In this document: piece by piece, positions 8,849 through 59,992 of the stretch | How the letters are laid out: the number at the start of each line of letters is the position of its first letter | Numbering within the stretch: position 1 is the stretch's first letter | DNA from: a candidate division TM6 bacterium GW2011_GWF2_43_87 | GTDB lineage: Bacteria; Babelota; Babeliae; Babelales; Babelaceae | DNA length: 64,000 nt | Assembly (NCBI GenBank): GCA_001000065.1 | Contig: LCGZ01000004.1 | Span: 128,867-192,866 of the forward strand | Reading direction: 5' to 3' | Notes under the pieces: generated by a model | The model's input: only the letters and a program-made list of their open reading frames with translations | Database searches by the model: none | Told to the model about the DNA's origin: nothing | Program-made: the position numbers and the translations under genes

Positions 8849-8852
8849 TGTC

Positions 8853-13309: not shown

Positions 13310-13313
13310 GTTG

Positions 13314-15150: not shown

Positions 15151-15410
15151 GAAACCTACTCCTTTTGGTTTTATTTAGTTTTTATAGTATCCATCTCTTA
15201 TTTTAGACTAACAAAATTCATTTCAATTTTGCAATAAAAACATTGAAAAAGTCGGGCATTTTTCCCTTGTTTTTGACAAAAAAGAAGATTGTTTTATACT
15301 ATAGTTCATGTTGTATGCTTGGCACCAATGTCACTAAATTTCCAGCGAGTCAAAATTAAGAATGTTCTCGCCATTGCATTCAGCAAGAACATTTTATGGA
15401 GGAAAATTCG

Positions 15411-23337: not shown

Positions 23338-23776
23338 GGGGGCGTACTGGCTTCGACGCGTTGTGCCTGTTGCAGAGAGCATGTCGAGCTTTGGTTTTGT
23401 GCTCGTTAAACAAAATACCAAAACAATAAGTGCAGCGACTAATATCCCTGCCGGTAGCTTATTTGCCTTGCTTCTTTCGGGCTTAATTGCACTCTTTGGT
23501 GCAGTTGCTCCTAGGAAACAAGAAGCTTTTGCTTAAAGCGTAAGCTACTACCTCTTTTTCGTGGCGTGTCCATCAGCTGCGTTTAAAGAGTATTACCAAG
23601 ATGGAACTGACACATAAGATTTTTTCGTTGTGGTAATGTGTCTGATCACTATAACGGGCTATCGCATTTTTCTCGTGTCTCTACGGGAATGCAGATAGTA
23701 TAATTAGAGAATAAGCATGTAGCGCTGGGCAATTGACAGGGCGTGGACATGGGTTCGACTCCCATCGCCTCCACCA
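23338..23776 (+). ncRNA. ssrA: tmRNA (transfer-messenger RNA, SsrA)
   Basis: 5' GGGGGCGTACTGGCTTCGACG pairs with 3' …GGGTTCGACTCCCATCGCCTCCACCA to form an acceptor stem with the G3-U70 alanine identity pair. There is a T-arm and an encoded CCA. The internal tag reading frame ends …KQEAFA-TAA (23432..23536). It lies about 1.6 kb from smpB. Confidence 0.85.
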
Positions 23777-32168: not shown

Positions 32169-33626
32169 TTGCTTATTTTGAAAAAGCACGTTCTAAAAAA
32201 AGGCGCATTTTCTATGGAGCGACTTTTACATATAGGAATTTTGGCACTGCCATTTGTTTGCATGTTAAGTGCTTTTGGTGGGGATATAGAGGCGGAAGAT
32301 CAATCGGATAAGCCATCAATAACTTTTTCTGAAAAAATTAGATGGTGCGATAATTTAGGCTGTTCATGCACAAAGCTAGAACCCACCCCCAAACCTACAT
32401 TAATTTTAAGTGGGTATGTGAATGCACAGCAGTGCTTTGATACACGTCAGGTGTATAGTTCTCGGGATGGAGAGGGCTTAGAGTATCCCTTTAAAAAAGA
32501 TATTGTAGCCTGCGGGGTTGATGCGAATAAGCAGGGTTCATTTTCGATGTATCTCTTTAACGTGCTTTTGGCTTTTTACGCGTGTGGAAAGCCTGTATGG
32601 GGAACTAAGAAAACGTATGCTATTATTTCGACTGATTTTCGAGGTATGGATGCCACTACTATCGAATTGTTGCGAATGCGCGATGCCTACGTTGTTTTTG
32701 ATTGGGAGCGAACGCAGCTTTTAACGGGTCAAAAATTACACCCTTTCTTTATAGACGATTGTTATCCCAATACGGTTGCAGGTGGTCCATTGGAGGTTTT
32801 TACCAATATTCCTATGGTTCGGTTAACCCAGAAACTGAATGGCGCGTATAAAAAGCCTAGTGATAATTTGATTTTTACCCTGGGTACACAGTGCCCGGCA
32901 ACTATGAGTAAAAGCCCAACTTCAGATGCGCCTGGAACGTCTTTTGTGAGAAGTACGCTGGTGGGACGCAACGGGGTAATGCCTATACTGCAGGTTCAGT
33001 GGCGCCATTATTTTGGTACGGATAATTTCTTTGGGATCATGATTGAGGGTCAACGGCTTCGTCCTCGTCTTAAAACAGCTGCATCTATACCCTATGCTGA
33101 AAAATGTTCTGCGTTTACTGAATGCATGTGTGGCATGTATGCAAAAATAGTTTCTGATTGTGCCATTTTAAAAACCAAGGCATCGTTTATTCAAGACGGC
33201 AGTGAGCTGGGATTTATGGGAGGATACGCGGTTGAGGACCAAGCTTCGTTCTCAAAGCGACAAAAATACACTCCTTTAAGGTCGATTTCCTTCTGGTTTG
33301 ACGTAGATTTTTGGCCAGATCAGGAGCTTTCTCCAGGGTTTATTGTTGCATTCTCAAAAAATTTGGGAGCAGGAAAATTGTTATTCCTGGATGCAAATAA
33401 ACAGCCAACCATTTACTGTTATGGACCGGGTGGATCGGCTGCAAGTATTGATACATTTTTTAAGGTTTCACCGCGATTGTGGTTTTCGAAGGGTGTGATA
33501 AATATAGGGGCAGAGATTGATTGGACTCGGGCTGGTTATGGGACTATTGATGAATATGGAGCGGTGCAGAATGCAGTTCCAGTAAATAATGTTAGATTCC
33601 AGTTATCGATATTTTATAAATTCTAG
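32169..33626 (+). CDS. Cys-rich outer-membrane beta-barrel protein (porin/MOMP-like family), paralog 1
   Basis: Signal peptide (MERLLHIGILALPFVCMLSAFGG). Many Cys. C-terminal beta-signal …VRFQLSIFYKF with alternating hydrophobics and a terminal Phe. Confidence 0.55.
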   Translation: MLILKKHVLKKGAFSMERLLHIGILALPFVCMLSAFGGDIEAEDQSDKPSITFSEKIRWCDNLGCSCTKLEPTPKPTLILSGYVNAQQCFDTRQVYSSRDGEGLEYPFKKDIVACGVDANKQGSFSMYLFNVLLAFYACGKPVWGTKKTYAIISTDFRGMDATTIELLRMRDAYVVFDWERTQLLTGQKLHPFFIDDCYPNTVAGGPLEVFTNIPMVRLTQKLNGAYKKPSDNLIFTLGTQCPATMSKSPTSDAPGTSFVRSTLVGRNGVMPILQVQWRHYFGTDNFFGIMIEGQRLRPRLKTAASIPYAEKCSAFTECMCGMYAKIVSDCAILKTKASFIQDGSELGFMGGYAVEDQASFSKRQKYTPLRSISFWFDVDFWPDQELSPGFIVAFSKNLGAGKLLFLDANKQPTIYCYGPGGSAASIDTFFKVSPRLWFSKGVINIGAEIDWTRAGYGTIDEYGAVQNAVPVNNVRFQLSIFYKF

Positions 33627-33658
33627 TTTGAAGTGGTTTAAAAAGGGGTGTGTAGCTG

Positions 33659-35127
33659 ATGACCATGGGTAGGAGATTGAGGATACTGAGCGTTTTATGG
33701 ATAGGTATTTGTACTGTTAGTGGTTTTGCGTATAATTATGCTCAGAGTAAGAATTTTGGCGAAAAGACGCAAAAAAAATTAAATACCCGAGTGATTCATA
33801 AAGCATCAGGTGAAAATTTTGACTGCTCTTGTTTAAAATTAGCGCCTACTTCTAAGCCTGTAATTACGGCTAGTGGATATGTAGATATTGAGCATTGTTT
33901 TGATACGCGTCAAATCTATGGATTTCGTGATGGTGAAAGCTTGGTATACCCTTTAAAGCGCGATTTATGTGCGTGTGGAGTTGATGCACATAAACAGGGA
34001 GCTTTTTCTATGTATCCATTTAATGTTCGGTTGGATCTGCTTATTCAACCACCCCCTGGAGTAGCCGTGGGGAATACTAAGAAGACATGGGCCTGTATAT
34101 TAACGGATTTTTATGGAATAAGTGACAGTATTACTGAACTTTTGCGTATGCGAGAAGCTTATGTTGTTTTCGAGTGGCCTGAGTCTCGGTTGTTGGTGGG
34201 ACAAGATTTACATCCATTTTTTATCGAAGATTGTTTTCCTAATACCGTGTCTTTTTCTAATGGCGCTCCTATGGAAGTTTCCACTTATATTCCTGTTGTT
34301 CGTTTTACACAAAATCTGAATAGTATATCTGGGATAAGTAAAAAAAAACCGATCAATTAATTTTTGTTTTGGCAGGTTCGCAATGTATGTTTACCAAAAG
34401 TCAAAGTCCTCTTTTTGATGCTGTTACTTCTCCAGCATCCGTTTCGTCCACTTTGGTAGCGCGCAATGGAGTAATGCCTGTTATGCATGTTCAATGGCGT
34501 CACTGTTTTGGCGGGGATAATTTTTTTGGGGTTTTGATTGAGGGACAGCGGCTTCGTCCACGTCTAAAAACCGGAACAACTCCAGCTTTTGCAGAACATG
34601 ATTCGGCTTTTACAGAATGTCTAGCGGGGGCATATGTAAGAGTTGGGTCAGATTGTGCTGTTTTGAAAGCCAAGGCGATGTTTGTTCAGGATGGGAGTGA
34701 GTTAGGATTAATAAGTGGCTATGCCGTGGAAGAGATGGCGCCAGTATCCCACAAACAAAAATATACGCCTACACGTTCTGTTGCAGCTTGGGTTGATTTA
34801 GATTTGTGGCCAGATCAGAAATGGGTGCCAGGGGGGGTGGTTGCGTTTGCAAAAAATTTGGGTGCAGGTAAGCGATTATATGTAAATCCTTCAACCGGGA
34901 GCCCGGTTGTATATGGTCTTGGACCAGTTTCTGGAGCGGCATCTACCATTGATATTGTTTTTAAAGTAGCTCCTAGATTGTGGATTAAACGAGCGGTTGT
35001 TGAGGTAGGTCTTGAGATTGATTGGACTCAGGCTAGGTATGGGACTATTGATGAATATGGGGCGGTACAGAATGCAGTTCCAGTAAATAATGTTAGATTC
35101 CAGTTATCGATATTTTATAAATTCTAA
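33659..35127 (+). pseudogene. Paralog 2 of the Cys-rich OMP family, split into two ORFs by a frameshift in an A9 homopolymer (34340..34348)
   Basis: ORFs 33659..34360 and 34369..35127 together align end-to-end with paralogs 1 and 3. Removing one A restores …ISKKKTDQLIFVLAGSQCMF…. Confidence 0.6.
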
Positions 35128-35252
35128 AAAAGGCGTTAATAACTTTTGACGAATTGCAATCGATTTCATATAGTGCTACCGGTAGCAAAATTTAGGCGTA
35201 ATATGGACGTAAGCTTATAGAAGCATGTTTTTGAAAAAGAGGGGAGCCGTAT

Positions 35253-36761
35253 ATGAAGCAACTTATAAAAATTAGCACTGGTTTCGTCGCCTCTGTCTGT
35301 ATATTGCAGATTTGCGCGGCTGATGAGGCGTCTAAAAAATTGGCAGATAAAACAGAAAAAGTTCTAGAAAGTGCTGCAGTTAAACCAGTAAAAACACCTT
35401 ATGAAAAAACCAGTTTTTGTGAGAAATTTGGCTGCTCGTGTACAAAGCTAAAGCCGCATAAAAAGCCAGTGATAACTATCAGCGGATTTGTTGATGCAGA
35501 GCACTGTTTTGATACGCGCCAGGTTTATGGATCTCGTGATGGAGAAGGGTTTTATTACCCGCGGGAGAAAGATCTTGTCGCTTGCGGGGTGGACGCTAAC
35601 AAACAGGGCTCTTTTTCAATGTTTCCGTTTAACGTTCGTTTGCTTTTCCAGATTGAGGGAGATCCGGTAGCAAATATGAAAAGAACGTATGCATTTATTG
35701 GTACGGATTTCCGTGGTACAGCTGATACTACCATTGAGCTTTTACGTATGCGTGAAGCGTACATAGTTCTCGATTGGGAGCGCACGCAGATTTTAGCGGG
35801 GCAAAAATTACATCCTTTCTGTAGTGATGACTGCAACCCTAATACGGTTTCGTATTCCAAGGGTGGCCCGATGGAAATCTATACCTATATTCCCATAGTT
35901 CGTCTAACACAGACTTTAAATGGAACCTATGAAAAACCTGCAGACCAGCTCTTTTTAATTCTTGCGGGTGGTCAATGCCCTGCAACCCAAAGTAAAAGTC
36001 CGTTGACAGATGCTCCTGGGGCGACATCTACAACGGTAGGAACTGCTAGCGCTGCAACTACTTTGGTGGGACGCAACAGTGTAATGCCCATTATGCAGGC
36101 GCAATGGCGTCATTATTTTGGCAAAGAAAATTATTTTGGAGTCACTATCGAAGGTCAGCGCCTAAGACCTCGTCTTAAAACTGTTGGGACGGGAAGTCCT
36201 GTTGTACCCTATGCCGAAAAATGTTCCGCCTTTACTGAGTGTATGTGTGCCGCTTATATGAAACTGACTTCGGAATGTGCGATTTTAAGGGCTAAATTAG
36301 CCTTTATACAAGATGGAAGTGAGCTAGGGTTTATTAGCGGCTATGCCGTTGAAGACCAAGCGAGTGTATCTAAACGACAAAAATATACTCCGTTGCGTTC
36401 TATCGCATCGTGGTTTGATGTAGATTTTTGGCCTGACCAGGAGTGGATGCCTGGGGCTGTAATTGGCTTTGCGAAAAACTTTGGTGCAGGCAAGAAGCTG
36501 TGGCTAAATGCCAATGGACAGCCTACCGTTTACACGTCAGGACCGGTTTCTGTAGCTAATCCAGGGGGTACAGGTGCAACTATCGATACGCTCTTTAAGT
36601 TTGCTCCACGATTGTGGATTAAAAAGGGCCCCGTGCATTTAGGCCTCGAATTTGACTGGACACGAGCTGCTTTTGGGAAGCTGGATGAATATGGTGCAGT
36701 CTATGGGGCTGTGCCGGTTAACAATTTCCGACTACAGTTTTCTATTTTCTATAGATTCTAG
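35253..36761 (+). CDS. Cys-rich outer-membrane beta-barrel protein, paralog 3
   Basis: Signal peptide. Conserved blocks CSCTKLKP…GFVDAEHCFDTRQVYGSRDGEG…ACGVDANKQGSFSM. C-terminus …FRLQFSIFYRF. Confidence 0.55.
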   Translation: MKQLIKISTGFVASVCILQICAADEASKKLADKTEKVLESAAVKPVKTPYEKTSFCEKFGCSCTKLKPHKKPVITISGFVDAEHCFDTRQVYGSRDGEGFYYPREKDLVACGVDANKQGSFSMFPFNVRLLFQIEGDPVANMKRTYAFIGTDFRGTADTTIELLRMREAYIVLDWERTQILAGQKLHPFCSDDCNPNTVSYSKGGPMEIYTYIPIVRLTQTLNGTYEKPADQLFLILAGGQCPATQSKSPLTDAPGATSTTVGTASAATTLVGRNSVMPIMQAQWRHYFGKENYFGVTIEGQRLRPRLKTVGTGSPVVPYAEKCSAFTECMCAAYMKLTSECAILRAKLAFIQDGSELGFISGYAVEDQASVSKRQKYTPLRSIASWFDVDFWPDQEWMPGAVIGFAKNFGAGKKLWLNANGQPTVYTSGPVSVANPGGTGATIDTLFKFAPRLWIKKGPVHLGLEFDWTRAAFGKLDEYGAVYGAVPVNNFRLQFSIFYRF

Positions 36762-36799: not shown

Positions 36800-37837
36800 A
36801 TGCAGGTGTTACCACGTGGCGAAGATGGTATAGGGTATGTTGCACCAGCTTTTCTTTTAGCTGGAATGGGAATTATGTCGATCTTATTAGGGGTGATATT
36901 TTACCAGGCCAGTTTTAACGTTAAGATTCGGGATCTGTACGCACCGGTTCAGACTTTGACTCCCAAAAAATTGGCTTATTTTGGAGGAACGCCTTCTGAT
37001 GTAACTGTAGGAATGTTTGTGCGAGACTTTCCCCAATTTGATGCGGTTCGAGGGACCTTTTCTGTAGATACTACCGTCTGGTTTTTATTTGACCCGCGGC
37101 TTGTTTCTATTGAGCGAATCGGAGATTTTACCTTTGAGCGGGCAGAAATTTTGAAACGATCCGAGCCCTACGTTCGCGTTGTGGGTAATATGGTTTTTGT
37201 TCGTTATGATATGCGCATGCGGTTCAATATGTCTTTTGACTATCAAGATTTTCCTTTTGATGGTCACCGGCTTAATTTTACCATGGTGCACTACTTTCTC
37301 TCTCCTGCCGAGGTTACCTTTAACTCTTCGCGTGCCAACTTAGTAATGAGTCCTGATATTAATATTCCGGGATGGAGAAATATTGATAGGCGCGTTGCTA
37401 CAGGGTACTCAGAAGAGCGGTTAGAGACGCAAGATGGTAAGCAGGAGTCTTTTTATCCCCGTGCCGTTTTTTCGCTTGATTTTGAGCGCATTGGGACTCG
37501 TAATATTATTTCGATATTTCTCCCTCTTCTTTTGGTTTTTTTTATAGCGTTATTTACATTTTCATTTGATCCTGTTGGAAAAATGGGTGTGCAGGCTGTT
37601 ACACTTTCAGCGACATCTATTACGGCACTGATTGCCTATCGATTTGTTATTGAAAATATGTCTCCTCCCGTAGGTTATTTTATGGCGTCTGACTATATAT
37701 TTTTAATATTTCTTGTGTCGTGCTGTGCCATATTTTTTATAAATATTTTTGGAGCCTATGTATCAGGAATCAGTAAGGCAATTATAGCGGTTGTACTTGA
37801 ATCGATCATAGTAACGACGTTCTTTTTATTGGTTTAG
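36800..37837 (+). CDS. Pentameric ligand-gated ion channel (Cys-loop receptor / neurotransmitter-gated ion-channel family) homolog
   Basis: AGAGGGAGAAG RBS. About 190-aa extracellular-type domain with W..D.RL and the Cys-loop-equivalent FPFD motif. A pre-M1 Arg, then M1 with a conserved Pro (IFLPLLLVFF), M2 (VQAVTLSATSITALIAYRFV), M3, a short loop and M4. Confidence 0.7.
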   Translation: MQVLPRGEDGIGYVAPAFLLAGMGIMSILLGVIFYQASFNVKIRDLYAPVQTLTPKKLAYFGGTPSDVTVGMFVRDFPQFDAVRGTFSVDTTVWFLFDPRLVSIERIGDFTFERAEILKRSEPYVRVVGNMVFVRYDMRMRFNMSFDYQDFPFDGHRLNFTMVHYFLSPAEVTFNSSRANLVMSPDINIPGWRNIDRRVATGYSEERLETQDGKQESFYPRAVFSLDFERIGTRNIISIFLPLLLVFFIALFTFSFDPVGKMGVQAVTLSATSITALIAYRFVIENMSPPVGYFMASDYIFLIFLVSCCAIFFINIFGAYVSGISKAIIAVVLESIIVTTFFLLV

Positions 37838-37847
37838 GACGTAACTT

Positions 37848-40034
37848 ATGAGGAAGATAGTACTAGGTGTCATTCTGTTAAATACCTCTTGTGCTAATGC
37901 TTTATTTGAAACGCTTTCTGAATGTAAGAATTTTGCAAATACATACAGGGAAGATGTAGAGTGTGATAATTGTAGTTGGAGGGATCCCTCGTACTCGACC
38001 TTTTATGGTTCTGTGAGAGTCGGTTTTTTCAAACGTCTTTTAAAAAAGCTTGGAATAAAAGCGGGTGTGTGGGATTTATTGGAACTTAAGCAGCCCATTG
38101 GTAGAATAGTTCAACGTTTTAATGTGACGAAACAACAACGTTCTTGGACCCCTGAGATAACGGTTGAAGAGGGCGTAAATCTTTTTGTATGGGGTGATTT
38201 ATATGGAGCGTTTCATTCTTTTCTTCGTGATCTTGATGAACTTGCAGCACGGAAAGTGCTAAGTGAGCAACTTAAGATAAATAGTAAAACAGATTATCTA
38301 GTGGTATTAGGGAATGCGATTAATTATTCTCCTTATTCTTACCCCTTGCTTACTCTGTTACTTTCTCTGATTGAAAAAAACCCTGAGCATTTTATTTATA
38401 TACGAGGTCCTCAGGAAACTGCTGCTCACTGGAAAGATTTTTATGTAATGCGTAAGCCTCTTGTAGACCTTGGAAAGCAGCAGGGTTTTGATGTGAAAGG
38501 GAAGTTGCCGCTTGAGGACGAGTTGAATACATTTTTTGGTACCTTGCCAGATGGTGTTCTTTTTAGGCATAAAAAAGCTGAGGATCTATGTTGTCTTTCC
38601 CATTCAATAATATCGCGAAAGTTATTTTTTGACCCCAAGGTTCAGGCCGCATTGATGGGGAAATCCAGGATTGATACATATTGGTCTAATAATGGACTTG
38701 AGTTTTCAGGATTCGAGGGCAATGCTGCAACATGGTCTCTCTTTTCAGCTCCTGTGGGAATTTATCAGAAGGCTGTGAATTTCTATAGTGATAGTTTTGT
38801 AGCGGTACATGTCGGAAAGTCATTCGCGCAGAGCACTATGTCTCTATTTTCTCGCGATATTCGTTTGGTGGAAAATTTTAAGGAGCAGGTTTTTTCATTG
38901 TCTGTGGGGATGAAAATTGATCCGAGAAAAAAAACTCAAGAAATCCCGATTTTCTCGATTGGATCTACTATGCCGCTGACGGGGGGGTTGATGCCTTTAG
39001 GCGTTTCTGTAAAGCAAGGAGTTGAAGCGGCTTTTAGGAAGGTTAATGATTTGGGCGGTGTTGATGGTTATTTTTTGAAGCTTGTAATATTAGATGATCG
39101 CTATTCTCCTGGAATAGCTAGGGCAAATGTTGATCTTTTATTAAAAAAATTTGGAATTCAGACATTGATTTGTCCTGTTGGAACTCCCACTCTAAATGCT
39201 TATTTGGATCTAGTGCGCGCTGGAAAGGTGTGGGTGTTTTATCCGATTACGGGTAGTGAATTCTTTAGATCTCCAGACCTTGGAAATATTGTTAACCAAC
39301 CCTATGGTAATGATACAAAGGCTTTGATGAAATTTATGGCTTCAACCCATAAATTTGAGCAATATGCTATAGTTTATCCTCGAGATCTTTACGGAAACTT
39401 GTTGATGGAGCAGGCTCAAGATGTTCTTAAGAGTTATGGCATAAATGATGTTTTATTATTTCCTGTCTCTCCCAAACAGAGAGATTTTAAAGAAATAGTG
39501 AAAAAATTGAAAGAAGCGGATCCAGAAGTATTAGCTATCTTTTTGGCTTCAGGATCTATGGCTTCATCTTTCTTAAGTCAACTTGGTAATGCTTTTCTTG
39601 GGGGAAAGAATTTGGCTGCTCTTGCCTATTTGGATGATGCAAACTTTGGGCCGTTTTTACATAAAACGGGGTTAAAGTTTAATTTTTCGTATTTACTTCC
39701 AAATCCTTATGGAAGTGACTTTGCATTTTTAAGAGACTACCGGGAGCATTTGAAACGGTATGATGGCCCTATTGACGTTAATTCATTAGAAGGATTTTTG
39801 GGTGCAACTTGTTTTGTTGAAGCAATGAAGAAAGTTGGAAAACCATTTGCCCCTTCTGCTATTAATGATTATCTAACGCATTTAAATCCATTTCCTATCA
39901 AAGGTTTTTTGACCCTTGAGAAGGATCCTCTAACGGGAAAGCGTTATCTTCCTGTTAGCATAAAAAACGATGAGAATGAGTGGATAATGTTGAATAATCT
40001 ACAAGAGGACCATGATTTATCCAAGAGGAAATAG
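37848..40034 (+). CDS. Secreted two-domain protein 1: N-terminal PPP-family Ser/Thr phosphatase-like (calcineurin/PP1-like, degenerate motifs) fused to a C-terminal type-I periplasmic binding protein (LivJ / ANF-receptor-like)
   Basis: Signal peptide. WGDLYGAFHSF (GDxHG-like), VVLGNAINYSPYSY (GDxxDRG-like, D->N), and YIRGPQE (GNHE-like). C-terminal half IGSTMPLTGGLMPLGVSVKQGVEAAFRKVNDLGGVDGYFLKLVILDD… has a LivJ-like pattern. Confidence 0.65.
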   Translation: MRKIVLGVILLNTSCANALFETLSECKNFANTYREDVECDNCSWRDPSYSTFYGSVRVGFFKRLLKKLGIKAGVWDLLELKQPIGRIVQRFNVTKQQRSWTPEITVEEGVNLFVWGDLYGAFHSFLRDLDELAARKVLSEQLKINSKTDYLVVLGNAINYSPYSYPLLTLLLSLIEKNPEHFIYIRGPQETAAHWKDFYVMRKPLVDLGKQQGFDVKGKLPLEDELNTFFGTLPDGVLFRHKKAEDLCCLSHSIISRKLFFDPKVQAALMGKSRIDTYWSNNGLEFSGFEGNAATWSLFSAPVGIYQKAVNFYSDSFVAVHVGKSFAQSTMSLFSRDIRLVENFKEQVFSLSVGMKIDPRKKTQEIPIFSIGSTMPLTGGLMPLGVSVKQGVEAAFRKVNDLGGVDGYFLKLVILDDRYSPGIARANVDLLLKKFGIQTLICPVGTPTLNAYLDLVRAGKVWVFYPITGSEFFRSPDLGNIVNQPYGNDTKALMKFMASTHKFEQYAIVYPRDLYGNLLMEQAQDVLKSYGINDVLLFPVSPKQRDFKEIVKKLKEADPEVLAIFLASGSMASSFLSQLGNAFLGGKNLAALAYLDDANFGPFLHKTGLKFNFSYLLPNPYGSDFAFLRDYREHLKRYDGPIDVNSLEGFLGATCFVEAMKKVGKPFAPSAINDYLTHLNPFPIKGFLTLEKDPLTGKRYLPVSIKNDENEWIMLNNLQEDHDLSKRK

Positions 40035-40046
40035 TGAGGAGGTAGT

Positions 40047-42266
40047 ATGGCAAATTTATCCCTAAAGCATTTGGTAATTTTATTTTATATAGGTGTTCTC
40101 CTGTTTGATAGTCTTGGGGTGCATGCATCTTTTAACACACTCTTTGAGTGTAAAAAATTTGCAGCACGGCATGAAGAAAGTCCCAAGAGTGATGATAGTA
40201 ATTGGAATGATCCTATTTTTGCTTCCTTTTATTCAAAAATGTTGCCTAGTTTTTTAAAGCGTATCGCGTTAAAATTTGGGTTTGGATCGAATGAATGGGA
40301 TGTCTCAAGGTTGGAAATTCCTTTAAAAAGAGTGGTTGAGCTGCGCCAAAAGATAGTAAAACCTCATCCATGGACCGTAGAGATTGAGGTAAAGGAGGGG
40401 ACGCGACTTTTTATATGGGGAGATCTGTATGGGGCAATTCACTCGTTTGTTCGTGGGCTTGAAGAGCTTGAGAGACGAGAGATAATCAACGAGAACTTGA
40501 AAATCATAAAGAATGATGACTATATAGTGCTTCTAGGGAATGCGATTAATCTTTCACCGTACTCATATCAGATGCTAGAGCTTATACTTTCTTTGATGGA
40601 AAAGAATCCGGAGCGCTTTATTTATTCGCGTGGGCTGCAAGAAAAAGGGCTTAAGTGGAAAGATGGCTATGTAATGCGTCAACCACTTATTGAATTGGCG
40701 CGTAAGGCAGGGAAAATTCATACAGGCGATGTGTCTCTTGAGAATGCCCTTAGCACTTTCTTTAATACGTTACCCGATCTGATTTTATTCAAGCATATAG
40801 GGCAGGGTAAAGAACAGCTGATATGTTCACATACAGACGTCCCTTATTCTATGTTGTCTAATCCAAAAGTTATGGCCTGGCTCGCAGGAGAGCGACGAGG
40901 AGAGCTATCATGGACAACAACAGGATTATCCTTTCTCGGGTTTGACGGTAATGCAGCGAAATGGTCTCTATTGTCGGCACCTATCTCCATTTATCAGGAA
41001 TTGGCAGAATTTTATTCAGATAGCTTTATGGAAATTAGTGTTGAAGATTCATTTACTCAGAGTATCTTGAATCTTTTTTCGCGAGATATGCGGACTAAAG
41101 AGGCCTTTAAAAAAGAGAGCCATTATCTGTCTGTGGGGTTGTCTATTCCTGTTGGCGAAGCACCTAAAAAGATATCTATCTTTACCGTGGGGTCTTCTTT
41201 GTGTTTAACAGGAGCAATGCGCCCACTTGGACGTGCGGTAAGGCGAGGGATTCTTGCGGCCTTTAGGAATGTAAATGAGCAGGGTGGAGTAAGTGGTTCT
41301 TACGTTAAATTGGTGGGATTGGATGATCAATATAGTCCGCGACTTGCGCGAAAAAATATTGACCTGTTTCTTGATCAGTTTGGTATTAATGTCATCCTAT
41401 GCCCTACGGGAACTCCCACGTTAGATTCCTACCTTGATTTGGTACGCAAGGGAGATGTTTTTGTATTTTATCCGGTTAGTGGAAGTGAAACTTTTAGAAC
41501 TCCTGATCTTTTGAATCTTATTAATCAGCATGTTCCTTATGCAAATGAGGTGCAGGCTTTGATGAACTTTGTTGTTTCAGAATATAAGCTAAAGCAGTAC
41601 GCAATCGTCTATCCTGATGATAGCTTTGGAAATCCTCTTATGCGCACGGCCAAAGAAATACTTGAAAAATTGGGCGTGAAAAGTGTTGTTCCTATTCCTT
41701 TTTCTCGTGATCAGACAAGTTTTGAGGAACAGGTTAAAAAACTGAAAGAAGTTACCCCAGAAGGAATCGCCTTCTTTTTTGCTGCAGGATCTTTGGCTAG
41801 CGCATTTTTAAGCCAAACTGGAACCGCATTTTTGGTGGGGAAACATCTGGCTGCGCTTTCTTATTTGGATGACATTGTTTTTAGGCAGTTTATTACAAAG
41901 GCGGGCTTGAGGTTTACTTTTTCCTATGGGGTTCCAGATCCAAATTTAAGTGAACTTGGGTTTGTTAAAGAGTATCGGTCGCAGATGGGAAAATACCATT
42001 ATCCTATCGATAGTAATTCTCTAGAGGGATTTTTAGGGGCGTCTGCCTTTATTGAGGCAATGAAGAAAGTAGGGTCTCCTTTTAAGGCAAATAAATTAAT
42101 GGGTTATCTAGAGTCGCTGCAAGTTTCTCCTGTAAAGAATTTTATAGATGTTCCCTTTGATCGAAGAGTTAGAGGCGTTGTGTATCCCACCTGGATAAAG
42201 TCAGAATCGGGGAACTGGATTGCTGCGGATGAGAAAAAAGGGCTAGATGGAGCAGCTAAAAAATGA
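40047..42266 (+). CDS. Secreted two-domain protein 2: PPP-phosphatase-like + PBP type-I fusion (paralog)
   Basis: IWGDLYGAIHSF, VLLGNAINLSPYSY, and YSRGLQE. C-terminal VGSSLCLTGAMRPLGRAVRRGILAAFRNVNEQGGVSG…LDDQYSP. Confidence 0.65.
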   Translation: MANLSLKHLVILFYIGVLLFDSLGVHASFNTLFECKKFAARHEESPKSDDSNWNDPIFASFYSKMLPSFLKRIALKFGFGSNEWDVSRLEIPLKRVVELRQKIVKPHPWTVEIEVKEGTRLFIWGDLYGAIHSFVRGLEELERREIINENLKIIKNDDYIVLLGNAINLSPYSYQMLELILSLMEKNPERFIYSRGLQEKGLKWKDGYVMRQPLIELARKAGKIHTGDVSLENALSTFFNTLPDLILFKHIGQGKEQLICSHTDVPYSMLSNPKVMAWLAGERRGELSWTTTGLSFLGFDGNAAKWSLLSAPISIYQELAEFYSDSFMEISVEDSFTQSILNLFSRDMRTKEAFKKESHYLSVGLSIPVGEAPKKISIFTVGSSLCLTGAMRPLGRAVRRGILAAFRNVNEQGGVSGSYVKLVGLDDQYSPRLARKNIDLFLDQFGINVILCPTGTPTLDSYLDLVRKGDVFVFYPVSGSETFRTPDLLNLINQHVPYANEVQALMNFVVSEYKLKQYAIVYPDDSFGNPLMRTAKEILEKLGVKSVVPIPFSRDQTSFEEQVKKLKEVTPEGIAFFFAAGSLASAFLSQTGTAFLVGKHLAALSYLDDIVFRQFITKAGLRFTFSYGVPDPNLSELGFVKEYRSQMGKYHYPIDSNSLEGFLGASAFIEAMKKVGSPFKANKLMGYLESLQVSPVKNFIDVPFDRRVRGVVYPTWIKSESGNWIAADEKKGLDGAAKK

Positions 42267-42283
42267 TTGTGAGGGGTTAGAAT

Positions 42284-44485
42284 ATGAAGGGATATTTTTT
42301 AGTTTCACTAATGATATATGTCGGTATGGCCAATGGGGCTGTAGGGCTAGATACACTTGAAAAATGTCGCACCTTTGCAGCTTCGTATCCAGAGTTTCCC
42401 AAGGCTGATAATGACGATCTTATTGATCCTAAATATTCTTCGTTTTATGCAAGCTCTTATCCGTCATTTTTGATGCGCATATCAGCTTCTATTCGTATGG
42501 TTGATAATATATGGGATTTCTCGATTTTAGAAAAATTATTAGATAAAATAATTGCAACGGCTGGCAAAAAACCTGAATCAGGTCTTTTTATTAAGAACGT
42601 TATTGTAGAGCCTGGAGCTCGCGGTATAGTTTTTGGGGACTTGCATGGACAGATTCACTCATTTATACGAGATTTAGGCGAGCTTGAGCGTCTGGGTTTT
42701 ATGGACGGGAATCTTAAGTTTAAAGATCAGCGTACCTATGGCATTCTTTTGGGAGATGTTATTAATAGGACATCGTATTCGTACCAAATTCTGCAGGTTG
42801 TATGCAATCTTATATTAAATAATCCAGGACACTTTTTTTATATTCGTGGCAATCAAGAGCGTGAACAGCGGTGGGAGAGTGCTTTTGCTATGAATGAACC
42901 ACTGCATTGGTGGTCGAATATTCAGGGATATAGACGAGGTGCCTGTGCTTCTCTTAAGGATAAAATAAATCAGTTCTTTGACACGTTACCCGATATTGTG
43001 GCTTTGAAACTGACAACAAAGCCGAATGAGGTTGTGTATTGCGCTGCTGACACGGTGCCGGTTTCCATACTTTCACATCCGGGAGTTGAAGCTCTATTAG
43101 TAGGGGAGCAGCGCAAGCAAATGTTTCATATTCCATCAGGTCTTGATTTTATGAAGTTTAATGTGGGTGTTGCGCATTGGTCTCTTTTTTCATGTCCTTC
43201 AACCGTTTATCAATCTATGGTTGAGTTTTTTCGAGATGCGTTTGTTATTTTACGTGTTGGATCGTCATGGAGGCTATCTTCATTAGTTCTTAACTACCGT
43301 GATATTCGCAGGAAAGAGGGTTTTAAAAAAGAATTATTTGATTTAACTATGGGTATTGCATGCCCGTCAGAAAGTGATCTTGAAAAAAGTCTTAATAAGC
43401 CGGTTTATTCGATAGGTTCTAGTGTAGCGTTTTTTAGTGGCTATGGTGCAGCTGGAACATCATTAGGGCATGGCATAGAAGGAGCTATTTTAGCTGCAAA
43501 TGATAGCGGTGGTGTAAAGGGATATCTTATTAGGCCTATTGTGTTGGATGATGAAACGCTTGCGCGGCTTGCTCGGGCGAATGCAGAAAAATTAAAGAAA
43601 GAATATGGGGTTGATGTTATTGTTAGCGCTCAGGGAACTGAGCAGGTATCCTCGTATCTTGATCAAGTAAAGGCTGGAAGCATTATCTCGCTATTTCCCC
43701 GTACAGGCGCCCCACAGCTTAGGAATATGTCGATGAAAAATATGGTGCATTTTAGAACTTCCTATGATGATGAAACAACGGCGTTAATAGACTATGTGAT
43801 AAAAGAGTATAAGGTACGTTCCTTTACGTTTGTGTACCAGAATGATGGGTATGGTATTCCAGTTTTGGAAGCTGCACACAAAGCGCTTATAAAATGGGGT
43901 ATAACTACCTGGACTGATATTCCTTACTCTCGAGAGCAGGTTTCGTTTAGCGATACGGTTAAAAGAGTGAAAAAGGCTGGAGCTGAAGGATTAGGAATGT
44001 TCTTTTCTGCCCATGCTCCTATTCGAGCATTTTTGGAGCTTTTGGGAGCAGAGTTTTTCTTGGGCCGGGTAGGATTTGGTTTTTCGTTTATGATTAGCGA
44101 GGCAACTCGACAATTTTGTGAGTCACGTGGGATGCATTTTATATTGTCTTATTCAACGCCTGATCCCAACAGCGAGGATACTCCGTTTATACGAGAGTAT
44201 ACAAAGGCAATGAAACGGTATGGTATTATTCGTGATGTTAATTCTTTGGATGGATACATGGCTGGTGCGCTTTTGGTTGAGGCACTCTCCCATATTGAGC
44301 CTCCTTTTACCAAAGAAAAAATTATGAATTTTTTTGAAAATTTGAAGGACTATTCATTTGCAGGTTTCAAACTAAATTTTGATCCTGAAACCCGTCAGCT
44401 AGGATTGCCTGTTTGGGTGGTTGCTCCCGACAAAAAGGCACTTACTTTTGAGTATAAACGCTCTGTGTTAAAGGATCGGTGGTAG
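42284..44485 (+). CDS. Secreted two-domain protein 3: PPP-phosphatase-like + PBP type-I fusion (paralog with the best-preserved phosphatase motifs)
   Basis: FGDLHGQIHSF (GDxHGQ), LLGDVINRTSYSY (GDxxxR), FFYIRGNQE (GNHE with H->Q). C-terminal IGSSVAFFSGYGAAGTSLGHGIEGAILAANDSGGVKGYLIRPIVLDDE. Confidence 0.65.
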   Translation: MKGYFLVSLMIYVGMANGAVGLDTLEKCRTFAASYPEFPKADNDDLIDPKYSSFYASSYPSFLMRISASIRMVDNIWDFSILEKLLDKIIATAGKKPESGLFIKNVIVEPGARGIVFGDLHGQIHSFIRDLGELERLGFMDGNLKFKDQRTYGILLGDVINRTSYSYQILQVVCNLILNNPGHFFYIRGNQEREQRWESAFAMNEPLHWWSNIQGYRRGACASLKDKINQFFDTLPDIVALKLTTKPNEVVYCAADTVPVSILSHPGVEALLVGEQRKQMFHIPSGLDFMKFNVGVAHWSLFSCPSTVYQSMVEFFRDAFVILRVGSSWRLSSLVLNYRDIRRKEGFKKELFDLTMGIACPSESDLEKSLNKPVYSIGSSVAFFSGYGAAGTSLGHGIEGAILAANDSGGVKGYLIRPIVLDDETLARLARANAEKLKKEYGVDVIVSAQGTEQVSSYLDQVKAGSIISLFPRTGAPQLRNMSMKNMVHFRTSYDDETTALIDYVIKEYKVRSFTFVYQNDGYGIPVLEAAHKALIKWGITTWTDIPYSREQVSFSDTVKRVKKAGAEGLGMFFSAHAPIRAFLELLGAEFFLGRVGFGFSFMISEATRQFCESRGMHFILSYSTPDPNSEDTPFIREYTKAMKRYGIIRDVNSLDGYMAGALLVEALSHIEPPFTKEKIMNFFENLKDYSFAGFKLNFDPETRQLGLPVWVVAPDKKALTFEYKRSVLKDRW

Positions 44486-44496: not shown

Positions 44497-45501
44497 TCAG
44501 TTTTGTGACTGTTTTTTCACCACGCGAGATTTTGCTTTTGGGGCGTTTTTTAGAGCTTCTTTTAAGTGTGTGATGCACCAGGATAAACTCTCTGTTTTTA
44601 ATGAGGTGGGCTGAATTTTTGCCTGGGAATATGCATCGTTTAAGGAGAATAAAATGTAGGTGAACATCTGTTTTTTTGTGGGGATAGAAGAATTTTTACT
44701 TTTGGTAACAATGAAGCTTATTATAACTTTTAATGATTCAAAGCGTTCATTTTGAATTGCCCACTCTAGAATGGATGATATGTTTGGTTTTTTGAGATTG
44801 TTGGTGGAGAAAGGGTCGCAGAATAGATGAGAAATGGCGGTAGGAAGACCCCTTACTGTGTTATTTAGGAAGAGCGACAGAGTTTGAGGAGTGTCGTCTT
44901 TTACGTGGCTGTAAATGAGACACTTTTTTTGTTCTCTTGGAATAGCATTCCACTCTTCAAATAAGTTTTTTTTCGTTTTTGTATTCGGTTCCGTGGTGTT
45001 GCTGTCCTGTATAGGTCTTTTTTTACAGAATTTTTTTGAGGAGCCTCTTTTCCGTTTAATAGGGGGATTTTTTGTGGACGCGATTTTTTGTGGGCCCTGT
45101 TCAACTATTTTAGTTGGCTGTGGCTCGGTCTCCTCGTCTGGGTCGAAAAACTGGAAAGTTGGCATGTCAAAAAACTTGTCAGGGTCTAAGGTCATCGGTT
45201 TTAAAATGGTTGTGGGGGATTGTGGTGGTGTCACGATTCCCTGATCAACGAGCACGTTGGTTGAGTTGTTTTCTAGGTGAGCTAGTAGATCTTGTATTGG
45301 GGTATTGTTTTCATCTAGCCAAAAAGGCGTTGGGTCGGGAGTAGTTGAGGGTGGAAAGCTTGACGGCTGTTGATCATCAAGATCCAGAAGGTTGAAAGTT
45401 GGTTCTGTGTTATCGTTTTCCCATTCATTCATTGCCCACAGGCTGCTTGTGATAGAAAAGAGTAGCAGGACAATTAGCTGTGGCAGATGTTTTCTGATCA
45501 T
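44497..45501 (-). CDS. Hypothetical secreted Pro/Thr/Asn-rich protein with a basic KRKR…KKFCKKR cluster
   Basis: Signal peptide MIRKHLPQLIVLLLFSITSSLWA. Low-complexity PSSFPPSTTPDPTP. A basic patch PPIKRKRGSSKKFCKKRP. Confidence 0.5.
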   Translation of the reverse strand: MIRKHLPQLIVLLLFSITSSLWAMNEWENDNTEPTFNLLDLDDQQPSSFPPSTTPDPTPFWLDENNTPIQDLLAHLENNSTNVLVDQGIVTPPQSPTTILKPMTLDPDKFFDMPTFQFFDPDEETEPQPTKIVEQGPQKIASTKNPPIKRKRGSSKKFCKKRPIQDSNTTEPNTKTKKNLFEEWNAIPREQKKCLIYSHVKDDTPQTLSLFLNNTVRGLPTAISHLFCDPFSTNNLKKPNISSILEWAIQNERFESLKVIISFIVTKSKNSSIPTKKQMFTYILFSLNDAYSQAKIQPTSLKTESLSWCITHLKEALKNAPKAKSRVVKKQSQN

Positions 45502-45922: not shown

Positions 45923-46816
45923 TTATTTTTCGGTCATGTGTTTAAATTTAATGGGCGACTCAAACCGAATCCTTAGATCGCAAAAGCGTTTGGAGCGGTT
46001 TTTAAGGACTGTGGTTTGTTTGGCAAATTTGTTAAGCAGGTTGAGCTGTGTGATAAGGTGCCCTTTATTCATGTGATAGACTGCTTTGAGCTCTTTTTCA
46101 AGCGGGGTTCTTTTAAAAACAATATTTAAGGTACTGTTGTTTTTAAGATCTTGCATGTTTTTTGGCCAAAGATACGTAGGGTTTCTGGCTCCGAAAATTG
46201 TTTGCATATATCGATTGGCTGCATCGATTAATACGGGATCTCCATTGTAATCGCTAGGCAGTTGCGGAAGTATTATACCTTTTTGAAGTTCTTCGGCAAA
46301 CTTAGGCGCAAGGAAGTTTTTTACGAATATGACACGGTCATCCTTAGTTATTGTCTTTCCCCCTTTTTTGGTGGACATCAAGAGATTGATGAGCTGAGTA
46401 CACTGTTCTGGTTTCCAAAGATTGCCCTCTAGAAGATAGTTCAAGGAATATGCATAGCCTCCAATAAAGGGATCAGCCCCATATTTGAGGAGAAAATTTA
46501 CAAATTCAAGGTTCTTATCGAGAGTAGCGGTATATAACGAAGTGGTCGAGCCACCTATCCTGTTAACGTCTGCGCCATTTTTGACTAGTAACTTTATGAT
46601 TTCAAAGTTGCATGCATAAAAAACAGCACGATTTAGGGGTGGGTAGCCATTGTTGTTCTTGGCATTGACATCTATTTTGTGTCCCGGTTGCAGAAGAGTT
46701 TTAATCCCTTCAAGATCATTTTTGTTTATGAGCTGGTGTAAATTCGCTCCCTTTAACAGGGTAGTGCTTGGTGCAAGCAGAGCGAGTGAGAGTGCGATGA
46801 GTTTTGCAATTTTCAT
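45923..46816 (-). CDS. Ankyrin-repeat protein with signal peptide and a C-terminal domain of unknown function
   Basis: Signal peptide MKIAKLIALSLALLAPSTTLL. ANK motifs NGYPPLNRAVFYACNFEIIKLLVKNGADVN…. Confidence 0.7.
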   Translation of the reverse strand: MKIAKLIALSLALLAPSTTLLKGANLHQLINKNDLEGIKTLLQPGHKIDVNAKNNNGYPPLNRAVFYACNFEIIKLLVKNGADVNRIGGSTTSLYTATLDKNLEFVNFLLKYGADPFIGGYAYSLNYLLEGNLWKPEQCTQLINLLMSTKKGGKTITKDDRVIFVKNFLAPKFAEELQKGIILPQLPSDYNGDPVLIDAANRYMQTIFGARNPTYLWPKNMQDLKNNSTLNIVFKRTPLEKELKAVYHMNKGHLITQLNLLNKFAKQTTVLKNRSKRFCDLRIRFESPIKFKHMTEK

Positions 46817-50936: not shown

Positions 50937-51012
50937 GAGCCGCTAGCTCAGGTGGTAGAGCAACAGCCTTTTAAGCTGTGGGTCGTAGGTTCGAGTCCTA
51001 CGCGGCTCACCA
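50937..51012 (+). tRNA. tRNA-Lys (anticodon UUU)
   Basis: Cloverleaf with acceptor GAGCCGC/GCGGCTC, anticodon loop cTTTTaa, T-arm GGTTCGAGTCC, and an encoded CCA. Confidence 0.9.
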
Positions 51013-51085
51013 GGTTTTTCTAAGACCTGTGTGAGGTTTTGAAATTTTGACAAGAGAAAGGCACGAGATCTAGGTCGTAGCTTCC

Positions 51086-51114
51086 TAAATTCTCTTGACA
51101 TGTTGTGGTTCAAC
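51086..51114 (+). promoter_or_regulatory. Candidate promoter for tRNA-Lys(CUU) (TTGACA, 17 nt spacer, TAACAT)
   Basis: The same ttctcttgaca -35 motif as the upstream tRNA promoter. Confidence 0.35.
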
Positions 51115-51136
51115 CCGTAACATTTGAATAGTGAAT

Positions 51137-51212
51137 GAGCCGCTAGCTCAGTTGGTAGAGCAACAGCCTCTTAAGCTGTGGGTCGTAGGTTCGAGCCCTA
51201 CGCGGCTCACCA
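51137..51212 (+). tRNA. tRNA-Lys (anticodon CUU)
   Basis: Near-identical to the first tRNA-Lys except for anticodon CTT and a few D-loop and T-arm bases. Encoded CCA. Confidence 0.9.
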
Positions 51213-51240
51213 TTCATTTACTTTCGGGTTTTCTATCCAG

Positions 51241-51318
51241 GTCCCCATCGTCTAGCCTGGTCCAGGACATCGCCCTTTCACGGCGGTAACAGGGGTTCGA
51301 ATCCCCTTGGGGACGCCA
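51241..51318 (+). tRNA. tRNA-Glu (anticodon UUC)
   Basis: Acceptor GTCCCCA/TGGGGAC. Anticodon loop CTTTCAC. T-arm GGTTCGAATCC. Discriminator G and CCA. Confidence 0.85.
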
Positions 51319-59810: not shown

Positions 59811-59992
59811 ATTGCACCTTTCTTTTGAATAAAACATTATCCGATGCTTTGTATGTGACCTACACCATTATACACTCTTTATTTTATCCCAGTTTTTTTT
59901 CGCGCTAACTCGGCTTCGCCTCCGGTTCTTCGCGCTTTAGGGTAGCATTCATCCTCAGGTTTAAAAAGACCTGGGGTTTTTTGCTTGGTTTT

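Follow-up and report, generated by a model that had tools for sequence, protein, structure and literature searches.

Background

Much of the structural work on Cys-loop receptors has been done on GLIC, ELIC, sTeLIC and DeCLIC. Other receptors and binding-protein-dependent sensors include iGluRs, GABA-B receptors and class C GPCRs as well as MBP-Tar, LuxP-LuxQ and TorT-TorS. [quoted passage not shown] According to Tasneem, Iyer, Jakobsson and Aravind 2005 (PMC549065), bacterial pLGICs of Magnetospirillum and Bradyrhizobium are N-terminally fused to a type-I periplasmic binding protein (PBP-I) domain, and others share operons with free-standing PBP-II or Cache proteins. They propose that the periplasmic domain senses or concentrates ligand for the channel. 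The earlier note on this DNA had mentioned such associations, and it is correct on this point.

The window, which is the whole stretch of 64,000 nucleotides analysed here, comes from the candidate division TM6 bacterium GW2011_GWF2_43_87. Dependentiae (TM6) live as obligate parasites inside protist cells. TM6 genomes encode no synthesis of amino acids or nucleotides, for which the cells rely on uptake (PMC4776705). The window encodes a Cys-loop-type channel together with proteins bearing a periplasmic small-molecule-binding domain, as do the systems described in PMC549065. By the yardstick applied there, namely a PBP fused to or operonic with a pLGIC, the association is operonic at every testable locus and fused in four proteins. 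In contrast to the fusions described there, however, the PBP-I domain resides on a separate secreted protein or at the channel C-terminus and always follows a domain derived from PPP-type phosphatases, and the arrangement extends to one to seven PBP domains, 1 to 5 or more genes per locus and phylum-wide conservation. In the passages of PMC549065 that were searched, neither a phosphatase-like domain among the fused or operonic pLGIC partners nor a C-terminal or stand-alone PBP variant with a PPP-like domain was found. Jaiteh et al. 2016 (PMC4795631) and two Dependentiae genome papers, including PMC4776705, do not mention the association. In the iGluR, GABA-B, class C GPCR, MBP-Tar, LuxP-LuxQ and TorT-TorS systems the membrane partner is a tetrameric iGluR, 7-TM receptor, chemoreceptor or kinase; here it is a Cys-loop-type pentamer. 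Most likely, the secreted proteins are accessory subunits of the channel that have a sensor function and have not been described before; such a binding-protein-modulated channel would add a variant to the pLGIC-PBP associations reported in 2005.

A divergent pLGIC heads four closely spaced genes

Four genes on the forward strand are separated by gaps of 10, 12 and 17 bp, and the coordinates agree with the earlier description. Gene 1 (36800..37837) encodes a pLGIC subunit of 345 aa, with an N-terminal transmembrane helix (residues 16-39; 36845-36916), a beta-sandwich extracellular domain (about residues 62-232; 36983-37495) and the membrane segments M1-M4 (residues 234-344; 37499-37831), all on the same strand. 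It had been read as a pLGIC homologue, and profile, AF2 model and Foldseek all support this identity. The channel family profile matches sTeLIC (E=3.8e-12) and GLIC (E=4e-12) in the PDB. The AF2 model (pLDDT 93.7) has strands at residues 66-230 and helices at 234-255, 263-287, 296-316 and 323-344, and Foldseek relates it to GluCl, GLIC, GABA-A and GlyR at E ~1e-17 with probability 1.0. A Pfam search of the protein returned no match, and the NCBIfam model LGIC_1 gives E=2.4e-9 with 37 bits against a model cut-off of 500. A Pro-loop with an absolutely conserved proline is the family criterion (PMC4795631). The loop FPFD occupies residues 150-153, and P152 is invariant among 64 homologues; F151, the pre-M1 Arg234 and the M1 Pro242 are invariant or nearly so in the same set. 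Judged from profiles and the predicted structure, the gene 1 product is a divergent but genuine pLGIC. Because the Pro-loop, the pre-M1 Arg and the M1 Pro are kept, the channel also looks functional.

The fold and layout, with a beta-sandwich extracellular domain, four transmembrane helices and a short M3-M4 loop, are common to GLIC, sTeLIC, ELIC and DeCLIC, as are the FPFD Pro-loop, the pre-M1 Arg and the M1 Pro. However, the window channel is only ~15% identical to them, has an extra N-terminal transmembrane helix and belongs to a type that is always adjoined by dedicated partner genes. Unlike DeCLIC, it has no fused N-terminal periplasmic domain.

Accessory proteins combine a PPP-like domain with a PBP-I domain

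The next three genes encode accessory proteins 1 (37848..40034; 728 aa), 2 (40047..42266; 739 aa) and 3 (42284..44485; 733 aa), each with a signal peptide; proteins 1 and 2 are 48% identical. Domain limits were set by HMM domain matches. The N-terminal PPP-like domains, putative pseudo-phosphatases in proteins 1 and 2, span 37848-38930, 40047-41159 and 42284-43372, and the PBP-I domains span 38937-40031, 41166-42263 and 43394-44467.

A LivJ-like PBP-I domain had been proposed for the C-terminal half, and Pfam and fold comparison both bear this out. Peripla_BP_6 scores 121, 136 and 114 bits in proteins 1, 2 and 3 against a cut-off of 31.7 (E=9.2e-35 for protein 1 and 4.3e-39 for protein 2). The domain has the two-lobe Venus-flytrap fold common to the ligand-binding domains of mGluR, taste, CaSR, GABA-B and iGluR receptors; its models lie 2.1-2.3 A rmsd from ligand-binding proteins, and the fold matches include Leu/Ile/Val-, aromatic-acid-, urea- and amide-binding proteins. 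Its nearest relatives are substrate-binding proteins of ABC transporters, and 31 columns of the LivJ-like core are at least 80% conserved. Alignments onto liganded LivJ-like structures were too partial for the mapped pocket residues to point to a ligand. Compared with LivJ/LivK-type proteins (Peripla_BP_6), the window proteins carry ~360 extra N-terminal residues, and the adjacent partner is the channel instead of a LivHMGF-type permease/ATPase: in the window and in L001-L012, where genes were called, the fusions have no ABC permease or ATPase gene next to them.

The N-terminal domain has a metallophosphoesterase fold nearest to the PPP family. The fold and the motif alignment uphold the earlier description of a PPP-like domain with variably substituted motifs. 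The expected Metallophos match in Pfam was obtained in part, being above the cut-off in protein 3, as in many of its relatives, at 14.2 bits in protein 1 and absent from protein 2. The three motifs read GDLYG/GNAINY/GPQE in protein 1, GDLYG/GNAINL/GLQE in protein 2 and GDLHG/GDVINR/GNQE in protein 3. At the positions of PP1 D64/H66/D92/D95/R96/N124/H125/H173, protein 1 has D,Y,N,N,Y,P,Q,H and protein 2 has D,Y,N,N,L,L,Q,H. Protein 3 keeps five of these eight residues (D64, H66, D92, R96 and N124 equivalents) and has Ala in place of H173. Across an alignment of eight close homologues, which includes accessory proteins 1, 2 and 3, Gln replaces the general-acid His and Asn replaces its Asp partner. 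PP1, PP2A, PP5, calcineurin and BSU1 differ from the window domains, in which catalytic and metal residues are variably substituted. In contrast to eukaryote-type PPP phosphatases and pseudophosphatases, the window protein is secreted, begins with a family-specific extension of ~100 residues and is fused to PBP-I.

An exhaustive HMMER search places ~3000 clusters at 50% identity in the N-domain family, which rules out the fusion being a rare one-off. The family size is taken from this search; a word-index search with the N-domain profile returned two generic Metallophos proteins only. Most of the top-scoring members carry one to seven PBP domains, always preceded by a single N-terminal copy of the N-domain, and some weaker matches are ordinary phosphoesterases without PBP. 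The canonical D-H-D-D-R-N-H set is complete in only one of 62 full-length members. Catalytic positions are 31-79% conserved (R162 at 71%), whereas 26 core columns reach at least 80%, and G157, N180 and E192 are invariant. On these alignments, the N-domain is most likely catalytically dead across the family. With a conserved scaffold but poorly kept catalytic and metal residues, it probably serves as a pseudo-phosphatase adaptor. Nearly canonical phosphatase motifs persist in a few members, so that catalysis may be important in some lineages.

Channel and accessory genes are paired across loci

A synteny search in other genomes had been proposed as a check, and its outcome is strongly positive, with channel and fusion genes paired at all testable loci. 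From the channel side, 1 to 5 or more fusion genes directly follow the channel in nine of nine look-ups, at channel identities of 37-68% and with the fusion starting at most 23 nt after the channel, including a 1-nt overlap in L010. From the fusion side, an adjacent channel gene is present in all 21 metagenomic loci with usable neighbouring sequence; two further fusion-bearing loci without a channel are cut by the contig end and stand outside the 21. The organism of most metagenomic loci is assigned by similarity only. L012, found via a three-PBP fusion, has the channel too, and a scan of genome contigs with the single channel protein found one close relative, L003. L017 carries four tandem channel-fusion pairs, and L019 and L025 have two channel genes each, every one directly before fusion genes. 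The outer flanks vary between loci and include UvrB, AlaRS, NTase toxin and Ank genes. An unrelated ABC system lies 9 kb distant in L004. A megablast search of a plasmid collection matched nothing.

In four proteins (L030, L022, P0194 and P0265), channel, N-domain and PBP form a single chain, and a short basic linker takes the place of the signal peptide where the channel part ends. Read-through or sequencing artefacts are ruled out by the mutual identity of 30-43% and by the missing junction signal peptide in all four. The C-terminus of M4 is periplasmic in the pLGIC topology. The position of the accessory part in the fusions therefore fits the signal peptides on the free accessory proteins, for which a periplasmic location is predicted. 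Adjacency alone could reflect co-regulation, and the direct argument for contact comes from the fused clade only: four mutually diverged single chains without an internal signal peptide imply a physical complex. The suggestion of the earlier note that the PBP proteins serve the channel gains independent support from the natural fusions; gating by the PBP domain is a proposal.

Porin-like paralogues upstream of the channel

Three tandem porin-like paralogues occupy 32169-36761 on the forward strand. Paralogue A (32169..33626), a predicted DcaP-like protein of 485 aa from the listed TTG start, ends in ...YKF and is paralogous to 35253-36761 (phmmer E=6.5e-203); a Pfam search of it gave no match. 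Paralogue B (33659..35127) is disrupted, its N-terminal half (33659-34360) and C-terminal half (34369-35127) lying in different frames and matching paralogue C at E=1.5e-71 and 2.5e-105, respectively. A gap of 38 bp separates paralogue C (35253..36761; 502 aa) from the channel gene that follows it; in L001, the gene immediately before the channel shares 34% identity with paralogue C (E=6e-89). Unrelated insertions as an account of the four upstream ORFs are ruled out by their membership of a family that recurs at cluster borders: homologues adjoin the cluster in eight loci, the window included. At the N-terminus the proteins resemble a signal peptide, and at the C-terminus they end in an aromatic residue (...YRF or ...YKF); the sole PDB match of the family profile is the DcaP-like porin of Acinetobacter baumannii (6eus), weak (E=1.8e-5) and partial, covering 120 residues. 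From this one weak profile match, the family is predicted to be DcaP-like outer-membrane porins. The unit probably starts upstream with these paralogues, paralogue C being its probable first gene. The best promoter-like site of the region (35146-35174) has 10/12 matches, and in the promoter and terminator scan the counts equal the shuffled expectation, so that they give no firm indication of operon limits.

A proposed binding-protein-modulated channel and its alternatives

The reading that we prefer, at about even confidence, is that the window carries a conserved Dependentiae envelope module whose accessory proteins sense a solute and modulate the pLGIC. An inner-membrane pLGIC is co-encoded with one to several secreted accessory proteins, each consisting of a PPP-derived domain followed by one or more LivJ-type PBP-I domains. 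A small solute, possibly an amino-acid-like host metabolite, would pass the outer membrane, for which the adjacent porin is a possible route, and would be bound by the PBP-I domain in the periplasm. The pseudo-phosphatase domain would hold the accessory protein on the periplasmic face of the channel, close to the extracellular domain and the C-terminal end of M4; both structure predictions are of single chains. Closure of the flytrap would be relayed to the channel to modulate or trigger gating, thereby converting solute availability into ion flux or a change in membrane potential. The three window paralogues may represent three ligand specificities or a mixed accessory ring. A stronger form, which is tentative and somewhat short of even confidence, sees the PPP-like/PBP-I proteins as auxiliary subunits that the channel cannot do without and that crown the pentamer on its periplasmic side, with the pseudo-phosphatase as a new kind of channel-docking adaptor and ligand capture by the flytrap gating the channel. 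The channel's own extracellular domain, however, may bind an agonist at a conventional site, in which case gating could do without the accessory proteins.

Binding-protein-dependent facilitated uptake, in which the PBP hands a porin-admitted small charged metabolite to the pLGIC and the pore is a conduit into the cytoplasm, would make the module a channel-based analogue of ABC, TRAP or TTT systems and not a sensor. The kinship of the PBP domains with ABC substrate-binding proteins despite the lack of an adjacent ABC permease, the adjacent porin genes in eight loci, the import dependence of TM6 genomes (PMC4776705) and the multiplication of the module up to four times in small genomes speak for it. 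Known pLGIC pores, however, pass small inorganic and only very small organic ions, transport would be purely electrodiffusive, the pore sequence gave no sign of unusual width, and the canonical gating residues are kept as for a gated ion channel; we consider uptake unlikely. An active periplasmic phosphoesterase could instead cleave a phosphorylated host compound, the product being bound by the PBP and acting as channel agonist or being passed on. This agrees with the Metallophos scores of paralogue 3 and many relatives, with the five residues kept by paralogue 3, with GNHE in some relatives such as L030 and with the conservation of R162. Yet the Gln and Asn replacements affect all three paralogues, H66, D92, R96 and N124 are lost in paralogues 1 and 2 and the H173 equivalent in paralogue 3, the full signature is confined to one member, and few core columns are less conserved than the catalytic ones, which leaves this reading quite unlikely.

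The pairing down to 37% channel identity with changing flanks, the co-duplicated pairs and the four diverged single-chain fusions argue against co-regulation of physically independent proteins that share an operon for envelope physiology and form no complex. Contact-free sharing of an operon is common, and the window itself offers adjacency only, but we regard this account as improbable. A structural or assembly role is equally improbable. Here the accessory proteins would act in the periplasm as scaffolds or chaperones that, for instance, anchor the channel to the cell wall or outer membrane or aid pentamer assembly, with PBP ligand binding lost. Arrays of up to seven PBP domains are more scaffold-like than a single sensor, and pseudo-enzyme domains often turn into scaffolds. 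However, the well-kept LivJ-like core and the closeness of the PBP models to ligand-binding proteins stand against loss of binding, and the divergent paralogues fit a diversification of specificity.

Significance

The strict phylum-wide pairing of a pLGIC with secreted PBP-I proteins, together with the natural fusions, offers a testable system for external control of a pentameric channel, and the PBP domains offer a route to native pLGIC ligands. The N-domain family is large and apparently unnoticed, its best members being PPP-derived putative pseudo-phosphatases with one to seven PBP domains, and pseudo-enzyme biology would gain a secreted bacterial example. If the accessory proteins do form an obligate periplasmic crown, this would be the first pLGIC to be gated by a binding protein and the first from a prokaryote to have dedicated auxiliary subunits, and the sensing logic of iGluR and GABA-B receptors would have been invented independently on another channel chassis. 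It would also be a phylum-wide host-sensing device of the Dependentiae, possibly working with its own outer-membrane porin. The module is a candidate device for the sensing or uptake of host metabolites in the reduced, import-dependent genomes of the Dependentiae (PMC4776705).

Identity of the channel and its gene cluster

The cluster consists of four genes, all on the + strand, for a pentameric ligand-gated ion channel (pLGIC; 36800-37837, 345 aa) and for the accessory fusion proteins 1 (37848-40034, 728 aa), 2 (40047-42266, 739 aa) and 3 (42284-44485, 733 aa), separated by gaps of 10, 12 and 17 bp. The layout agrees with that described in an earlier note, made by a model reading the sequence alone. 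Identical proteins are annotated in a Candidatus Dependentiae bacterium (locus tags DDZ86_01320 and DDZ86_01335).

A Pfam search with the channel protein returned no match, and its score for the NCBIfam model LGIC_1 lies far under the cut-off of that model. A word-index search found 142 channel homologues, and all those with a source name come from Dependentiae, TM6 or Babeliaceae. A profile built on 64 homologues matches sTeLIC (E=3.8e-12) and GLIC (E=4e-12) in alignments that span the outer beta-strands to M3 or M4. The AF2 model of the channel (pLDDT 93.7, pTM 0.84) has four helices after a beta-sandwich, and Foldseek retrieves GluCl, GLIC, GABA-A and GlyR chains with it (E ~1e-17). Among the 64 homologues, P152 in the Pro-loop motif FPFD (residues 150-153) is invariant, and the pre-M1 Arg (R234) and the M1 Pro (P242) vary little or not at all. 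The profile matches, the model, the Foldseek hits and the Pro-loop thus confirm the earlier assignment of the first gene to the Cys-loop family.

An additional hydrophobic helix (residues 16-39; 36845-36916), modelled with pLDDT above 90, lies ahead of the extracellular domain. If it is an uncleaved signal anchor, as it may be, each subunit would have five membrane helices, which is probably unusual among pLGICs. A manual alignment with GLIC suggests that M2 (within 37499-37831) has Phe at 16' and, in place of the usual Leu or Ile, Thr at 9'. Both residues appear to be kept in the family consensus, and neither -1' nor -2' would be acidic.

A phosphatase-like domain in the accessory proteins

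Each accessory protein opens with a short hydrophobic stretch resembling a Sec signal peptide, and the N-terminal half (about 360 residues) resembles the PPP phosphatases. A profile of eight of these N-domains retrieves only eukaryote-type PPPs from the PDB, with BSU1 (4.6e-6) ahead of PP2A, PP1 and PP5. Alignment with PP1-alpha by hhalign gives 96.6% probability and E=5.6e-10, the PP1-alpha sequence used being approximate, with small errors possible. The profile and hhalign results together bear out the PPP-like domain proposed for the three long proteins. A conserved WSLLSxPxxxYQ stretch also appears, by eye, to resemble the PPP motif SAPNY.

Residues were mapped onto PP1 by hhalign and the family alignment. 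At the positions of PP1 D64, H66, D92, D95, R96, N124, H125 and H173, protein 1 has D, Y, N, N, Y, P, Q and H, protein 2 has D, Y, N, N, L, L, Q and H, and protein 3 has D, H, D, N, R, N, Q and A, so that the PPP motifs are variably substituted, as had been noticed before. In the eight closest homologues, Asn for D95 and Gln for the general acid H125 are both invariant. Among 62 full-length relatives, the complete D-H-D-D-R-N-H set occurs in only one, and conservation at these positions is 31-79%. By contrast, conservation reaches 80% or more in 26 other PPP core columns, and 90-100% in neighbouring columns such as G118, H125, S126, R129, G157, G189, E192 and W197. This residue pattern indicates that the fold of the N-domain is selected and its chemistry is not, which is the usual signature of a pseudo-enzyme.

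The rarity of the family suggested by a word-index search (4 matches) was overturned by an exhaustive HMMER search with the N-domain profile, which brought up 3035 clusters at E<1e-3, of which 1635 remain at E<1e-10 and 487 at E<1e-30, the lowest-scoring matches including ordinary phosphoesterases without a type I periplasmic binding protein (PBP) domain. Among the best 147 matches, 78 carry the N-domain with one PBP domain, 16 with two, 5 with three, 2 with four, and one each with five, six and seven; 41 have the N-domain alone, many of them probably fragments, and 2 are single chains of channel, N-domain and PBP. There is one N-domain per protein in these 147, ahead of the PBP domains without exception. 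Giant relatives with one PPP-like domain include P0145 (3020 aa, seven PBP-I domains), P0228 (2821 aa, six) and P0249 (2274 aa, five). A weak relative of the PBP half, P0005 (795 aa), combines Peripla_BP_6, fn3 and a purple acid phosphatase N-terminal domain (PF16656), a second and different joining of PBP-I with a metallophosphoesterase-associated domain.

Conserved pairing of channel and fusion genes

The synteny search proposed in the earlier note found the pairing in other genomes from both sides. On the channel side, nine channel homologues were sampled (37-68% identity, including the channels adjoining the related proteins P0003 and P0004), and a fusion gene is the next gene in 9/9 loci, at a distance of at most 23 nt or, in L010, with an overlap of 1 nt. 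The channel is followed by one fusion gene in L004, L006 and L010, at least one in L002, where the contig ends, two in L009 and L011, three in L001 and in the window, and four in L007; L012 has one fusion gene before the channel, one after it and a stand-alone PBP gene. The outer genes vary among these loci (UvrB, AlaRS, NTase toxin and ankyrin genes). In L003, whose channel is 85% identical, the order is the same up to the contig limit. Locus L010 also contains tandem channel paralogues (8795-9844 and 9974-11038) ahead of its fusion gene and, after it, a gene (13254-14309) for a 330-aa protein with a PPP-like domain alone and no PBP.

On the fusion side, scanning metagenomes with the N-domain profile gave 31 loci, and a channel gene is adjacent in 21/21 of those that carry a fusion and have usable sequence around it. 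Contig ends interrupt 2 of the 31, and 8/31 have an N-domain match without PBP. One of these, L038, has a channel directly upstream and is included in the 21; the seven that lack both PBP and channel look like ordinary phosphoesterases. The conserved unit is therefore the channel plus its fusions. It also forms arrays: four channel-fusion pairs stand in tandem in L017 (59-12619), L019 and L025 have two channel genes apiece with fusion genes directly after each, and L021 (4567-17068) has a single channel with a run of at least five fusion genes behind it. It is almost certain that the domain assignments are right and that the conserved pairing is real.

Single-chain fusions

An uninterrupted ORF of 1105 aa in locus L030 (1537-4851) joins channel, N-domain and PBP in one chain. 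At the junction, M4 is followed by a basic linker of about 22 residues and then by the start of the mature N-domain, the signal peptide being absent. L022 has the same junction, with the reading frame broken further downstream, and the related proteins P0194 (1113 aa) and P0265 (1109 aa) share the architecture. These four are 30-43% identical to one another, which rules out an assembly artefact and argues for an established clade. Because the C-terminus of M4 in the pLGIC fold lies on the extracellular or periplasmic side, the tethered module shares its compartment with the free proteins that bear signal peptides. The single-chain fusions are the strongest evidence available for contact between the accessory proteins and the channel, and for the N-domain as the part that would lie nearest to it. 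The accessory proteins and the channel probably form a complex.

Porin-like neighbours and the surrounding window

Four ORFs on the + strand upstream of the channel, none with a Pfam match, represent three tandem paralogues: an intact copy (32169-33626), a split copy (33659-34360 and 34369-35127; 233 and 252 aa in different frames) and a second intact copy of 502 aa (35253-36761). The two ORFs of the middle copy correspond to the N- and C-terminal halves of its intact neighbours; the split reflects either a pseudogene or a frameshift from assembly. The 502-aa protein is 34% identical (E=6e-89) to the product of the gene directly upstream of the L001 channel. Homologues adjoin the cluster in eight loci, directly upstream in the window, L001, L003, L010 and L025, and, in L012, L032 and L034, directly on the downstream side in convergent orientation. 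The family profile has one match in the PDB, the DcaP-like outer-membrane porin 6eus (E=1.8e-5), and the proteins have a C-terminal aromatic residue. They are likely porins, weakly supported as this assignment is.

The window suits a Dependentiae origin: its GC content is about 41%, it holds several ankyrin-repeat genes, and a related metagenomic contig has the same gene order EamA, HIT, pseudouridine synthase and MgtE. A 334-aa ORF (44497-45501, - strand), of low complexity and rich in Pro, Thr and Lys, separates the cluster from the EamA gene. It has no Pfam match and no homologue in the loci compared, L001 being empty at this position, and is possibly a secreted or effector-like gene specific to the lineage. 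Ankyrin-repeat proteins, which are typical of host-associated Dependentiae, are encoded at 15396-17750, 45923-46816 and 58554-59837, and a protein with AAA-ATPase_like and PDDEXK_9 domains at 56733-58415. The window also contains a tmRNA gene (23338-23776), whose tag peptide reads APRKQEAFA, and, at 50937-51318, clustered genes for tRNA-Lys(ttt), tRNA-Lys(ctt) and tRNA-Glu(ttc).

Proposed mechanism and biological meaning

The best-supported reading is that a periplasmic binding-protein module is attached to a pLGIC. The PBP-I flytrap would capture a solute, the pseudo-phosphatase domain would dock the accessory protein, and the protein so docked and loaded would modulate or gate the channel; the chances of this full mechanism are about even. 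It is unlikely that the channel itself is the conduit for the bound solute. That an active phosphoesterase generates the ligand is slightly less likely still: relatives such as L030, which retains GNHE, are closer to canonical PPPs, so some members may be active, but the catalytic-residue pattern speaks against this explanation. Mere co-regulation of channel and accessory proteins is improbable, since the single-chain fusions speak against it, and a role of the accessory proteins as structural scaffold seems just as improbable.

Attachment of a binding-protein module to a pLGIC has precedents. Tasneem et al. 2005 (PMC549065) describe N-terminal fusions of PBP-I to bacterial pLGICs as well as pLGIC operons with stand-alone PBP-II or Cache proteins, and propose that these domains sense or concentrate channel ligands. 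Reports of fused or adjacent PBPs, which the earlier note had mentioned, therefore exist, and the present cluster varies a known association. Compared with the systems described there, the accessory protein here is separate or fused C-terminally, a PPP-derived pseudo-enzyme adaptor is added, PBP domains and genes are multiplied, and the arrangement is conserved phylum-wide with a recurrent porin-like neighbour. The interpretation of the earlier note is supported and extended. In recent DeCLIC papers (PMC12664993), the accessory periplasmic domains of prokaryotic pLGICs still count as little understood, and a search of the open-access literature found no paper that connects ligand-gated channels to Dependentiae, or periplasmic binding proteins to pseudophosphatases. 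Because Dependentiae cells have a periplasm between two membranes and do not synthesise amino acids or nucleotides (PMC6561590, PMC4776705), a device of this kind for sensing or taking up host metabolites would be biologically sensible.
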